Shown: positions 19,162 to 23,483 of the stretch, piece after piece
Numbering within the stretch: position 1 is the stretch's first letter
Layout: every line of letters starts with the position of its first letter
DNA from: a virus
Length of the DNA stretch: 23,483 nucleotides
UHGV virus genome: UHGV-0227276
Reading direction: 5' to 3' (one strand)
The notes under the pieces: model-generated
Seen by the model: the letters and a program-made list of their open reading frames with translations, nothing else
Database searches by the model: none
Told to the model about the DNA's origin: nothing
Translations under genes and position numbers: made by a program

Positions 19162-20547
19162 TTACTCATCTACTCTGATTTTTTGTTTTTTATTATTTTG
19201 AGTTAAGACATTTATGGTAATAGATGTATACGGATGAAAGTCAGGCACTATACTTTTAACCTCTCCATTTTCAAGAAAATGATGTGCTATTGAAGGAAAT
19301 AAATCAGGATCTACAGGATATTTAGCATTAGGATTATGATACATATTTAAACCTTCTGCCCATGTTTCTGTAATATCGCCTTCTTTCACTTCAAAACTAA
19401 ATGCTGCTGGATATAATGCCTCTGGGTCATGATCATGGCAGTAACCACTCCTAAATAATCTAAGGTCACTTCTTCCAAAACCAGCCAGTTTTCCCATCCG
19501 ATTAAACTTCGATATAGTACCACTATTAGAACTAAGGACGGCCGAAATATTTTCAGACTCATCCAAGAAGAAAAAGCCTGAAGGAATTTCCTTTTTCTCA
19601 AATTGATGCGATATAATTTTCTTAGTTGCTAAACTGTAACATCCATCTTCAGATTTAACATGCTCATAGCGAATACCATAAAGATACTGCCAAAGTGCAC
19701 TATGGGACCAAATCATAGAGTTTGGTTCATGAAAATCAGCAATTGCGAAAATTAAAGGATTCCCCTTAACATGTTCTAGATCCCAGTATCGAGTTTTCTT
19801 TTTCAGTTTAGAATAGAGAGAACTTCCAAATTTAATCGGCATATAATTCTCTATTTTCTCTAGCAATTCTTCCTTACTTTTAGGTTCAGATAGCATTTCA
19901 GATGATTGATTAATATCATTCCCTGTTGGATTAACCGTTACAGCTTCAATGCAAATAGTATTACCATACTTACGTGCCACATAATCAGGGGCATTAAACT
20001 GCCTATCTAGCCAAAAGTGTTCCTCTCGTAAATATGCGAAAAGATATAACTCCCATAGCCGGGCATCAAAACCTGTTGTCTGAAACTGCTCTATAAAATT
20101 CCCGTCGACATCCTCAAAATGATTCATCATTTCCTTGATTATCCCTGTTGCAGGCGACCAGTTCGCATATTTACCAAATAATGAAAAATGATGATGAAGT
20201 TTATCTGGTGTAACTATAGGTGTGAATAAATCCATTGCTTTATAAGTTTCATCACCTTGTGGAAATACTTTTACGTTTAATTTAGTATGCTTCCGCATTA
20301 ATTTCTTTAGTTTTGCTCGTGCAGAATTCATTTCTGAAACACTAGTAAATAGGTCAATACATCTATATCTCCCACTTAAGTCTCTTGCTAAAACAATACC
20401 GCTATAATCTTCATCAATTTGATCCAATAATAGTGCCCCTAGCAGGAACTCTCTCGGACTACAGTACCACTCAAACTCATAGCCTAAAAGTTCAGTATTT
20501 GGCATTCTGGTCCAATCAACAAAAGCATTAAACCTCTCTTTACTCAT
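19162..20547 (-). CDS. hypothetical 461-aa cargo protein, AT-rich, no motif recognised; candidate accessory/defense gene
   Basis: Long uninterrupted ORF in AT-rich DNA between Q and the cos-like site; no Walker A or other motif recognisable by eye. Confidence 0.6.
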   Translation of the reverse strand: MSKERFNAFVDWTRMPNTELLGYEFEWYCSPREFLLGALLLDQIDEDYSGIVLARDLSGRYRCIDLFTSVSEMNSARAKLKKLMRKHTKLNVKVFPQGDETYKAMDLFTPIVTPDKLHHHFSLFGKYANWSPATGIIKEMMNHFEDVDGNFIEQFQTTGFDARLWELYLFAYLREEHFWLDRQFNAPDYVARKYGNTICIEAVTVNPTGNDINQSSEMLSEPKSKEELLEKIENYMPIKFGSSLYSKLKKKTRYWDLEHVKGNPLIFAIADFHEPNSMIWSHSALWQYLYGIRYEHVKSEDGCYSLATKKIISHQFEKKEIPSGFFFLDESENISAVLSSNSGTISKFNRMGKLAGFGRSDLRLFRSGYCHDHDPEALYPAAFSFEVKEGDITETWAEGLNMYHNPNAKYPVDPDLFPSIAHHFLENGEVKSIVPDFHPYTSITINVLTQNNKKQKIRVDE

Positions 20548-20634
20548 TTTTTTTATATCAAGAAAGCGTTAGCTCTGTAGTGCATGTCTATGCCGCATGA
20601 GATCGCATGATCGTTTGAGGATCGTTTTTGCTAA

Positions 20635-20659
20635 GGCCCGCCAGAACTGGCGGGCTTTT
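20635..20659 (+). terminator. rho-independent terminator-like hairpin inside the repeat-bounded segment
   Basis: GGCCCGCC-agaact-GGCGGGC followed by TTTT on the plus strand. Confidence 0.45.
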
Positions 20660-20704
20660 GCGTAGATCATGCAGGTGCATGAAAACCACTACATAAAGCG
20701 GGCA

Positions 20705-20723
20705 GGCGTGGCGGGGATACGAG
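20705..20723 (+). other. cos-like motif (resembles the 19-nt cohesive end of 186/P2), in inverted polarity relative to Q/P
   Basis: GGCGTGGCGGGGA... matches the first 13 nt of the 186 cohesive end as I recall it (GGCGTGGCGGGGAAAGCAT; P2 GGCGAGGCGGGGAAAGCAC); located between A and Q where P2-like cos lies. Confidence 0.4.
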
Positions 20724-20749
20724 CGCGCGTATTTGGTCGTTACTTAGCT

Positions 20750-20824
20750 TTTTTTTATCAATAGATTAAGCTAACTTAAGTCTTTTTAGGAAAAAATATT
20801 TTTTCGTGATGAGGTAGAAAGATG
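20750..20824 (+). promoter_or_regulatory. AT-rich promoter-like region with GAGG Shine-Dalgarno and ATG (20822), currently pointing away from the cargo gene
   Basis: AT-rich tract then GAGGTAGAAAG-ATG, reading in frame into the right-hand repeat copy (MSFLDIKKMSKERFNAFVD...) and ending after 41 codons. Confidence 0.35.
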
Positions 20825-20940
20825 TCTTTTCTTGATATAAAAAAAATGAGTAAAGAGAGGTTTAATGCTTTTGTTGATTCAAGGGCTCGTTGTTCAACCT
20901 TGCTGACGCCAGAAGCAAGTTCAGACGCCAGCAACGTTTC

Positions 20941-21174
20941 TTAATGCAGCCAGCTGTCGTCTTCCCACACCTTCTGCATAATTTTCATCACTTGTTTTCT
21001 TTCTTCGTCCAGTTGCAGTCCGGTTAGTTCCACACCGTTAGAGCTACCTTTGCGAATGCGAATTACCGTTTTGGGATACAGGGGGCGCAGATTGCGGTAA
21101 AGCTCGGATTCAAGGGCGTCCAGGGTAGACTGGCTAATCTTCTGCTCTTTATCGATCATTATTTCAATGCGCAT
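20941..21174 (-). CDS. DinI-family protein (DNA-damage-inducible protein I-like), 77 aa
   Basis: MRIEIMIDKEQKISQSTLDALESELYRNLRPLYP...IMQKVWEDDSW follows the DinI pattern (E. coli DinI MRIEVTIAKTSPLPAGAIDALAGELSRR...ILQETWESADDW, from memory); GAGGTGA Shine-Dalgarno 5 nt upstream. Confidence 0.8.
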   Translation of the reverse strand: MRIEIMIDKEQKISQSTLDALESELYRNLRPLYPKTVIRIRKGSSNGVELTGLQLDEERKQVMKIMQKVWEDDSWLH

Positions 21175-21184
21175 AAAAGTCACC

Positions 21185-21373
21185 TCAGCTGATGACATCC
21201 ATTGAGCGGTTGTATTCGTGGGTTCTGATTTTTGCCATGAGTTCATCAGTCAATTCAGAAACCCACTGCAGAGCCAGCCCCTTCTCTTCATCACTACACT
21301 CACTAGCCGCTACAAGCTTAAGAAAAAAATCAATGCGCTGGAGCTTCAAAGACTCCAAAAAATAGTCCTGCAT
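21185..21373 (-). CDS. hypothetical 62-aa protein, first gene of the LexA-box operon (possible Tum-like antirepressor part)
   Basis: GGAGGAAAG Shine-Dalgarno then ATG (MQDYFLESLKLQRIDFF...); ends 10 bp before the DinI-like start. Confidence 0.45.
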   Translation of the reverse strand: MQDYFLESLKLQRIDFFLKLVAASECSDEEKGLALQWVSELTDELMAKIRTHEYNRSMDVIS

Positions 21374-21416
21374 CTTTCCTCCTATGACACCACACGCAAT
21401 GCTGTATGCATAACCA

Positions 21417-21432
21417 CTGTTTATATTTACAG
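21417..21432 (-). promoter_or_regulatory. LexA (SOS) box
   Basis: CTGTTTATATTTACAG fits CTGT-N8-ACAG with an AT-rich core, 44 nt upstream of the 62-aa gene start. Confidence 0.6.
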
Positions 21433-21526
21433 TATATAATAATCTTACTGATGTAAAACGATTTTTTACGTTCATCAGCCTGATATGCCTGGTATTATTA
21501 AGAGCACGAATTGTTAACCCGCGTAA

Positions 21527-23137
21527 TTAATACAGGTTCCGCCACTGATCATCTTCCTGCAAACGCTGGTTCCGATAGAAGATACGCAGGCCTGCTCCTG
21601 ACGGAATACTGCCTCCGCGAAGGAGTAAATCGACCTCTTTCTCGCTGCCATCAAATCCTCTGGACTTCAGCTCATACACGAGCTGCAGTCGCTGATGGTC
21701 TGTAATTCGCTGTTTGTAGTCTTTACGCCGTTTCGGTTTCACCAGGCGTAACCTTGCTGCCAGTTCCCGGCGCTCTTTTTTGCTCATACTGTGCAGGTAA
21801 TCGTGCAACTCCTTGTCATCCATGCTGGTAATGTCCGTTCTGGGGTCCCCATCAGCTGATTTATCTTTCTCCTGTTGGTTCAAATTTTCAGCAAGGGGAC
21901 AGTTATTGCCACGAGTCCAAGGGGCGCAAGCGCCCTGGTCGGCTGCCGCCTCCTGAACGTCAACGGCTTTACGAACCATTTTCCACTTCACTGCATGAGT
22001 GCAGATCTTGCCCTCTGCAATGGGTGACCAGATGCCATAAATACGAATACCGTGATCGCCATAGGCGGTCGGCTCTTCGTTGATTTCATAAGCGGTTCTG
22101 ATGAGGTGATATTTACGGGGAACCAGTACGCCGCCCTGCTTCATGATGTAGGTGGCAAAGCAACCAGCATCAGCTGCAGCCAGAATGGCATCAAGGCGCG
22201 GGTTATCCAGTACCGGCGCACCTGCTTTTTTGTCACCCTGTTGCCTTGCCGCCTGACCAGCCAGCAATCGCAGTTCACGGTAAGCCTGACGCCCCGGAAT
22301 GCCAAAGAAGCGGAATTGCTGAACACGATGCAGAGACGCCCAGGCATTAACGTATTCAGCGTTATCACGCAGAGATTTACCCGTTTCCTTGCTGATCTCG
22401 CCAGCCAGACCACGCCCGTCAATGTTCTTACTGATATATTTCGCGATGTAGCTTGTCGGCGTTCCTTTACGCGGGTTAATCAACTCAGACTTAAAGCGCG
22501 GCCCAGTGTTATTGCCCAGCTCCTCGCGGTCTTCACGGATGGCAAACTTACGCAGTAATGCAGTGATGGCGCGGCGGTCTTTTTTGCGCATAAAACACAA
22601 CAGGTGCCAGTGAACTGTACCGTCATGATGCGGCTCAGCCACCCGCACGCCATACCAGCGCAATCCGGCTTTGTGCATCGCCTTACGAAATGCAGCAAAC
22701 ATGCCGACCAGATAGTCGCTGCTTTGTCTTACCGTCGAGTTTGTCCAGGTCGGGTTGGGTCTGCCGTTATTGAGCGTGGAATGGAAACGCGACGGACAGG
22801 TGATAGTGTAGAAAACGGCGCAGTCACTGCGCATTTCCGCGATAAGCTCCAGACCTTTAACACAGGCCATCATCTCATTGCGGCGATGCGCCGGGTTGCT
22901 GCTGCTGGCGTTTACCACATCTTCCATATCCAGCGTGTCGCCGTCTTCGTTCACCAGTTCATGAGAACGGAAAAACTCCAGCGACTTACGGCGCTGCTCA
23001 CGTTTATGCATCACGGCTTCATAGCTGACATAGGGGGATGCTTTTTTGCTGACCAGGCAGACAGCACGCAACTGCTCTTCCCGCCATTCGCAACGCATCT
23101 TCCATAATTTCCGATACCACCAGTCGGCACACAACAT
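21527..23137 (-). CDS. A: replication initiation protein A (rolling-circle initiator, P2 gpA-like), 5'-truncated in this arrangement (536 aa ORF)
   Basis: VHWHLLCF (HUH-like) and YIAKY paired-tyrosine motif; reading frame closes 16 codons upstream of the annotated start, exactly at the edge of a 52-bp inverted repeat. Confidence 0.85.
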
Positions 23138-23384
23138 ACGCGTGCCTTGATGCAGCTTGTGGTGATTTGTATGCCACCGATGACGTTAAGCCAGAAGAAA
23201 TCCGCAAGACATGGGAAAAGGTGGCAGCGGAAACCCTGCGTCTGGATGTCATCCCGCCTGCGTTTGAGCAACTCCGTCGGAAAAGAAACCGCCGTAAACC
23301 CGTGCCCTATGAACTCATTCCGGGTTCGCTGGCGCGTATGTTGTGTGCCGACTGGTGGTATCGGAAATTATGGAAGATGCGTTG
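23091..23384. repeat. 52-bp perfect inverted repeats (23091-23142 and 23333-23384) flanking a 190-bp segment inside the 5' part of gene A
   Basis: Exact reverse-complement match CGCGTATGTTGTGTGCCGACTGGTGGTATCGGAAATTATGGAAGATGCGTTG; both copies encode [15 protein letters not shown] on opposite strands. Confidence 0.9.
23143..23332 (+). other. inverted fragment of the A coding region (63 codons) lying on the opposite strand to A
   Basis: Plus frame ...[52 protein letters not shown] runs in frame into the repeat-encoded [15 protein letters not shown]. Confidence 0.45.
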
Positions 23385-23483
23385 ACTCATTTCAGGCAGA
23401 ATCAGCAGGCCGTCCAGCCCTACATGGCTTGCCATAAAACGAAAAGATGCAGATAGCTGGCTGTCGCGTACATGCTCCAGTCG

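Follow-up and report, generated by a model that had tools for sequence, protein, structure and literature searches.

Does an operon that joins a LexA box, a short reading frame of 62 codons and a DinI-like gene serve a prophage as its switch from DNA damage to induction, in the way that tum serves coliphage 186? The question was raised by positions 20,941–21,434 of the virus genome UHGV-0227276, the whole stretch of which (23,483 nt) was analysed and is referred to below as the window. The source of the window is a P2/186-like (Peduoviridae) prophage, along which tail, capsid, terminase and portal genes are followed by a cargo gene, the operon and gene A. Tum of 186 is an established anti-CI factor, which binds CI and keeps it off its operators and is expressed from the LexA-repressed promoter p95 (PMC7708051); in Fels-2 and PSP3 tum is split by a stop codon, and the upstream PSP3 gene carries the antirepressor activity (PMC3121763, Lemire et al. 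2011; the activity is cited there as a personal communication). The operon of the window belongs, with high probability, to a prophage of the Fels-2/186 type (Peduoviridae) and is its SOS operon, controlled by LexA and present in the split TumA/TumB form. As such it is already known: it is the described split tum of Fels-2 and PSP3, the mechanism, by which DNA damage leads to prophage induction with no cleavage of the repressor, is textbook-adjacent, and its recognition adds little.

Layout of the operon

Control region and both genes are read from the minus strand: the LexA box (TACTGTAAATATAAACAGTG, 21434..21415), which overlaps the putative promoter; gene 1 (tumA-like, 62 aa, 21373..21185), a predicted CI antirepressor; and gene 2 (tumB-like or DinI-like, 77 aa, 21174..20941; Pfam DinI). 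Replication gene gpA was located at 21527..23137 (Pfam Phage_GPA, 6.5e-111). The preliminary description had assigned the operon to a genome position equivalent to that of 186 tum, and this was borne out: it lies directly downstream of gene A, as p95-tum does, and before the cos/portal end, portal and terminase genes being found further downstream; the same order after gene A was observed in 186 (p95-tum), PSP3 and Fels-2. The genes had been described as tightly spaced and each provided with a Shine-Dalgarno (SD) sequence, in agreement with the gap of 10 nt between gene 1 and gene 2, with the presence of AGGAGG 4 nt upstream of the ATG of gene 1, and with GAGGTG as the SD of gene 2. Since this SD of gene 2 shares nucleotides with the stop codon of gene 1, translation of the tumB-like gene is probably coupled to that of the tumA-like gene. 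The box was indeed found upstream of the genes; its distance to the ATG of gene 1 was measured as 43 nt and replaces the earlier value of 44 nt.

Other readings of this segment were discarded. A 96-aa ORF from 21475 was rejected as gene 1, its start being upstream of promoter and box in non-conserved sequence; a 101-aa ORF from 21246 was rejected as gene 2, for it shares sequence with gene 1 in a different frame and its DinI domain starts at residue 38. A hairpin at 21179–21196, covering the tumA stop codon and the SD of the dinI-like gene, was no better than shuffles (z −1.6) and was not retained as a regulatory element; the search for Rfam RNA families found none in the window.

LexA box and putative promoter

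The motif CTGT-N8-ACAG was present in one copy in 23.5 kb (21417–21432; 0.30 expected), and the 20-mer consensus TACTGTATATATATACAGTA, with up to 3 mismatches allowed, gave a single match in the window (21415–21434), one that was reached in 0/100 shuffles. All 3 mismatches of the box to the 20-mer consensus are outside of the CTGT/ACAG cores, and both cores are intact; the near-consensus SOS box noted earlier is thereby confirmed. Fels-2 and the natural E. coli contexts L007/L008 have the very same box, and a similar one precedes 186 tum, PSP3 tumA, Fels-2 STM2728 and the homologues of Yersinia vB_YenM_06.16-2 and Cronobacter ESSI-2. Alignment of the upstream regions of 22 species displayed the box as a conserved footprint between variable flanks; conserved were a TTTAC-A hexamer, TATACTGT...AAACAGTG and the SD, and the remainder varied.

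A putative sigma-70 promoter (21429..21457, minus strand) was placed here on the grounds of its resemblance to 186 p95 and of its conservation. Its −35 hexamer would be TTTACA (21457..21452), separated by a 17-nt spacer from the −10 hexamer TACTGT (21434..21429), which is located inside the LexA box and forms its left arm; an alternative −10 hexamer, TATACT (21436..21431), would leave a spacer of 15 nt. The annotated layout of 186 p95, TTCACA-N18-TACTGT, is matched by this arrangement. A strict sigma-70 consensus scan of the promoter region gave no promoter, the hexamers being weak, and it is for this reason that the promoter is only inferred.

A further conserved element, TATAyATACAGT, was observed 3–5 nt downstream of the LexA box, between box and SD; in the window it occupies 21401–21413 (minus strand), reads TTATGCATACAGC, and is also present at the aligned position in loci L019–L038. 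It resembles the right half-site of LexA but has no CTGT partner at the proper spacing.

DinI-like protein

The product of gene 2 starts with MRIEIMIDKEQ... and matched Pfam DinI (PF06183) at 6.5e-23 over the full profile (positions 1–63 of 63; 81.3 bits vs a cut-off of 24.2), so that the earlier assignment of the second gene to the DinI family, with the coding span 21174..20941, is correct. Identity was 78% with PSP3 TumB and 42% with residues 72–145 (C-half) of 186 Tum; the E. coli DinI structures 1GHH/7YWA were matched at 2.7e-6. Against the host-DinI equivalog NCBIfam NF007893 the protein scored 42.7 bits, below the cut-off of 111, and gene 2 is therefore, judged by its profile scores, a phage DinI-like paralogue and no chromosomal dinI.

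The 62-aa protein and its relation to Tum

With Fels-2 STM2728 the 62-aa protein shares 98.4% identity; it matched phrog_698 at 3.6e-38. Its alignment to the N-terminal domain of 186 Tum, envisaged in the preliminary description, failed at the level of single sequences (BLASTP vs 186 Tum and vs PSP3 TumA: no alignment) and succeeded at the level of profiles. The family HMM, built from 30 diverse representatives, scored 34.9 bits on 186 Tum residues 6–48; hhalign of family residues 5–45 vs 186 Tum 5–45 gave 94.5% probability and E 7.6e-8, with identity of about 20% between the 62-aa protein and 186 Tum over 41 columns. The family to which the 62-aa protein belongs, phrog_698, was hit by the N-terminal 70 residues of Tum at 6.7e-6, and the 62-aa protein in turn matched the Tum-N families phrog_8554 and phrog_1993. 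With the same-family HMM of the 62-aa protein a Yersinia phage 'tum protein' obtained 37.6 bits; PSP3 TumA obtained only 4 bits with the family profile. The motif common to the 62-aa family and Tum-N is roughly h-E-s-h-x-L-Q/E-R-I-D/E-h-h-a-R-L-v-A-x-x-x-C-x-x-x-D-K/R-E-h-A-L-x-W-I-A-E-L. These comparisons support the view that the 62-aa protein is homologous to the antirepressor (N-terminal) half of 186 Tum, a relationship visible to profile methods only.

AlphaFold modelled the 62-aa protein (pLDDT 85.7) as two helices, H2-22 and H28-61, that form a hairpin. A profile search with the protein against PDB sequences gave no match; Foldseek of the model vs PDB returned generic helical hairpins only (ExoVII small subunit, designed bundles), all at E > 0.7 and uninformative. 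Pfam, NCBIfam and PADLOC provided no family. In RefSeq and phage records the gene appears as 'hypothetical protein' or under the erroneous name 'levan regulatory protein', and PGAP labels the module 'DinI-like family protein | hypothetical protein'; with a profile that connects it to the N-domain of Tum, annotation pipelines could name the 62-aa gene, and this is the practical value of the finding.

Homologues in Enterobacterales are numbered in hundreds (66 cluster representatives at 50% identity). The median dN/dS of the 62-aa ORF was 0.07 (27 comparisons, dS about 1, that is, at synonymous saturation); the ORF is under strong purifying selection across species and is therefore a real gene.

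Some proteins of the TumA family (P0147, P0152, P0155, P0172, P0177, P0181; loci L048, L063) possess a glycine-rich C-terminal tail with the end ...NPQxGGxxSGGGxLQ, which might be a degradation or processing tag; the window protein is free of this tail.

Distribution of the module

The survey comprised 49 loci, each from a different Enterobacterales species and each encoding a TumA-like protein, that were found with a narrower family alignment; a broad family alignment was without a conserved stretch and was discarded as query for related loci. A box of the TACTGT-N8-ACAGT type was present 15–51 nt upstream of the start in 43/49 loci, the chance expectation being 1–2 by a rough, uncomputed estimate, and gpA was located just upstream in nearly all of the 49. 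The DinI-like gene followed downstream in 20/49 loci and was absent in 29/49; LexA box and TumA therefore constitute the constant core of the module, and the DinI-like gene is optional. The 500-nt module was found in 1,083 of 5,426 complete E. coli genomes (about 20%).

TumA-like genes devoid of the partner were noted in loci L039–L063 and in the phage loci L013 and L014. A subfamily of TumA with a GTG start (61 aa, beginning VNDLFMESLALQRIELMARL) has its LexA box only 18 nt upstream and was never seen with a DinI-like partner.

Terminator, cargo gene and inverted blocks

Downstream of the operon the window carries PD-T7-1 (461 aa, 19162–20547, minus strand; PADLOC 1e-195; phrog_8571), a validated single-gene anti-phage system (PMC9519451). 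It occupies the gpA-gpQ slot, a known defence hotspot of P2-like prophages (PMC9122126). Other cargo fills this slot in relatives: Fels-2 has a 243-aa protein there, and a TIR-domain protein and a protein with a Hypoth_Ymh domain were also seen.

An intrinsic terminator (GGCCCGCCAGAACTGGCGGGCTTTT, 20635..20659) was located on the plus strand, where its U-tract is found (fold −23.4 kcal/mol, z −5.0). In natural relatives (L007) the terminator belongs to the operon strand and is separated by about 135 nt from the stop codon of the DinI-like gene; it ends the operon, and the cargo gene then follows. On the operon strand of the window the hairpin remains and the U-tract is gone: the terminator points the wrong way because it is inside an inverted block of 314 nt. 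Two perfect 52-nt inverted repeats are present (arms 20514–20565/20828–20879 and 23091–23142/23333–23384), and compared with the natural contexts L007/L008 the blocks 20566–20879 (314 nt) and 23142–23384 (243 nt) are inverted, with one 52-nt arm duplicated. The second inversion splits gene A, its N-terminal part being on the plus strand (23167–23385); with gene A interrupted in this way, the prophage may, as its sequence stands, be incapable of replication. Neither inversion touches the LexA box or the two genes. The search, which covered the first region, found the window arrangement of the first inversion in 0/5,426 complete E. coli genomes. Both repeats have the same arm length, and it is therefore plausible that the inversions are an artefact of assembly or construction rather than biology.

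In E. coli S88 (L068 409–2849) the SOS module and PD-T7-1 are 100% identical to those of the window, and the annotation lists gene A as a pseudogene with a frameshift; some carriers of the module may therefore be replication-defective prophages.

CI repressor and its pairing with TumA

The immunity region is outside of the window, and the presumed target CI was seen only in near-identical natural contexts. Natural genomes with identical module and cargo have an immunity region of the 186 type and encode CI (PF07022 + PF16452; Phage_CI_repr, Phage_CI_C), Apl/Cox, CII and Fil; ON470620 carries cI/cox/cII/fil. Covariation of TumA and CI was analysed in 35 prophages (595 pairs), taken from loci L019–L067 (TumA at about 10001, CI 4–8 kb upstream) and also L004, L015 and L017. 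The Spearman coefficient was 0.03 for the N-terminal and 0.07 for the C-terminal domain of CI. TumA proteins of 98–100% identity are paired with CIs whose N-terminal domains are 68–71% and C-terminal domains 27–53% identical; in the case of 100% identical TumA, CIs of 44% overall identity were found alongside (N-terminal domain 68%, C-terminal 27%). Conversely, CIs with identical N-terminal domains stand alongside TumAs only 48% identical.

Such absence of covariation is unexpected for a highly specific protein pair and suggests free shuffling of modules and/or broadly reactive antirepressors. If CI is the target of TumA, the comparison of domain identities indicates that a conserved surface of the N-terminal domain is probably recognised, and TumA may be cross-reactive. 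A tentative and rather doubtful extension of this would make the antirepressors of the TumA family generalists, directed to a surface that is conserved in the DNA-binding domain of CI, with modules exchangeable between immunity types and the DinI-like partner dispensable; if this were true, a single damage signal could cross-induce all the 186-like prophages that share a cell. The lack of TumA–CI covariation is a small lead on antirepressor specificity and prophage cross-talk, and the only lead beyond the known.

Proposed mechanism and alternative explanations

The suggestion of a two-gene or split Tum-like SOS module is sustained by the profile link to Tum residues 5–48, by the match of the DinI-like protein to the C-half of Tum, by the 186-like position and by the 186-type cI/apl/cII switch of natural genomes that carry this exact module. 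SOS induction and antirepression would be as in the literature on the relatives (Fels-2, 186 Tum, PSP3 TumA), and on this analogy the operon should work as follows. In the lysogen, LexA bound to the box that overlaps the −10 hexamer would keep the operon off; upon DNA damage RecA would be activated, LexA would undergo self-cleavage and the promoter would fire. The 62-aa helical-hairpin protein would then accumulate, bind the non-cleavable 186-type CI and block operator occupancy, whereupon the early lytic promoter would open and the prophage would be induced. The co-translated DinI-like protein would be an accessory modulator, presumably on RecA filaments, tuning strength or duration of the SOS signal. 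That this TumA allele binds its own CI, and that the DinI-like protein has this tuning role, we infer from the relatives.

An SOS-regulated operon of another purpose is unlikely; in it the 62-aa protein would be no CI antirepressor and, as a moron-like product, would act on host SOS or on the cargo (PD-T7-1). The TumA and CI sequences without covariation would be in accord with this, as would the position of the module, which borders the gpA-gpQ defence hotspot (PMC9122126) and directly precedes PD-T7-1, and the deletions of Gifsy dinI homologues that were without effect on induction (PMC3121763). Against it speak the clear profile homology to that half of Tum which, by the 186 annotation, full-length Tum requires for inhibition of CI; the retention of the gene beside the LexA box whatever cargo follows; the strong terminator between gene and cargo in natural genomes; and the report that Fels-2 is controlled by an antirepressor mechanism like that of 186 (PMC3121763). 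It is very unlikely that the module is the vestige of a defective prophage, lacking a function of its own and able at most to cross-induce resident P2-like prophages in trans. Here the breakage of gene A in the window by the 243-nt inversion with duplicated arm would be taken at face value, together with the frameshift annotated in gene A of E. coli S88 beside a 100% identical module; cross-talk by trans-acting antirepressors is documented for Salmonella prophages (PMC3121763). Both genes of the operon are intact, however, and dN/dS of 0.07 points to continuing selection across species; the inversion of gene A is absent from the natural contexts L007 and L008, the terminator-side arrangement was met in 0/5,426 complete E. 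coli genomes, and the breakage of gene A may therefore be a sequence artefact.

It is extremely improbable that the match to the LexA box is an AT-rich palindrome that arose by chance, with both ORFs constitutive or otherwise regulated. The bare 16-mer CTGT-N8-ACAG, expected 0.30 times in the window, would by itself leave room for chance; this is countered by the 20-mer match that none of the 100 shuffles reached, by the conserved position of the box in 43/49 species, by its persistence while the flanks diverge and by the experimentally observed damage induction of the Fels-2 copy (PMC2225428). In the microarray work on Salmonella cited, Fels-2 STM2727 was up 5.5–14.8-fold with the mutagen MX, among genes of the LexA regulon, and STM2726-2727-2728 was flagged as an operon. 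The split TumA/TumB operon under LexA control is thus preferred.

Comparison with known systems

Fels-2 is closest to the window: it has the identical promoter and LexA box, its gene pair (STM2728/STM2726.1, the latter STM2727) aligns almost base for base, and the spacing is the same. The difference is in the slot of the third gene, which in Fels-2 holds a 243-aa protein with the length of 186 Orf97 and in the window PD-T7-1; the CI of Fels-2 is 60% (L017) or 44% (ON470620) identical to the CIs of natural E. coli contexts. PSP3, like the window, has tum split into two genes, which follow gene A and are preceded by a LexA box; the genes are named tumA/tumB there, and tumA is annotated as 'similar to 5' end 186 tum; UV induction of prophage'. 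In contrast to Fels-2, the TumA of PSP3 is very divergent from the 62-aa protein, and the PSP3 box is nearer to its start codon.

In the annotated record of 186, promoter p95, LexA site and tum are likewise arranged directly downstream of gene A; both halves are fused in one Tum of 146 aa, and the distance from box to start is about 19 nt vs 43 nt in the window. An internal GTG start of 186 tum leads to a free DinI-like protein of 76 aa, annotated as 'truncated Tum' that 'modulates SOS induction'. Like the operon, the dinI-gfoA/gftA-irsA loci of Gifsy-1/2/3 bring together a LexA box with genes for a DinI homologue and for a small antirepressor, which inactivates a non-cleavable repressor (PMC3121763); they differ in that dinI comes first, the order thus being reversed, and in that they belong to lambdoid phages with another repressor family. 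A literature search on TumA/TumB by name returned unrelated papers only.
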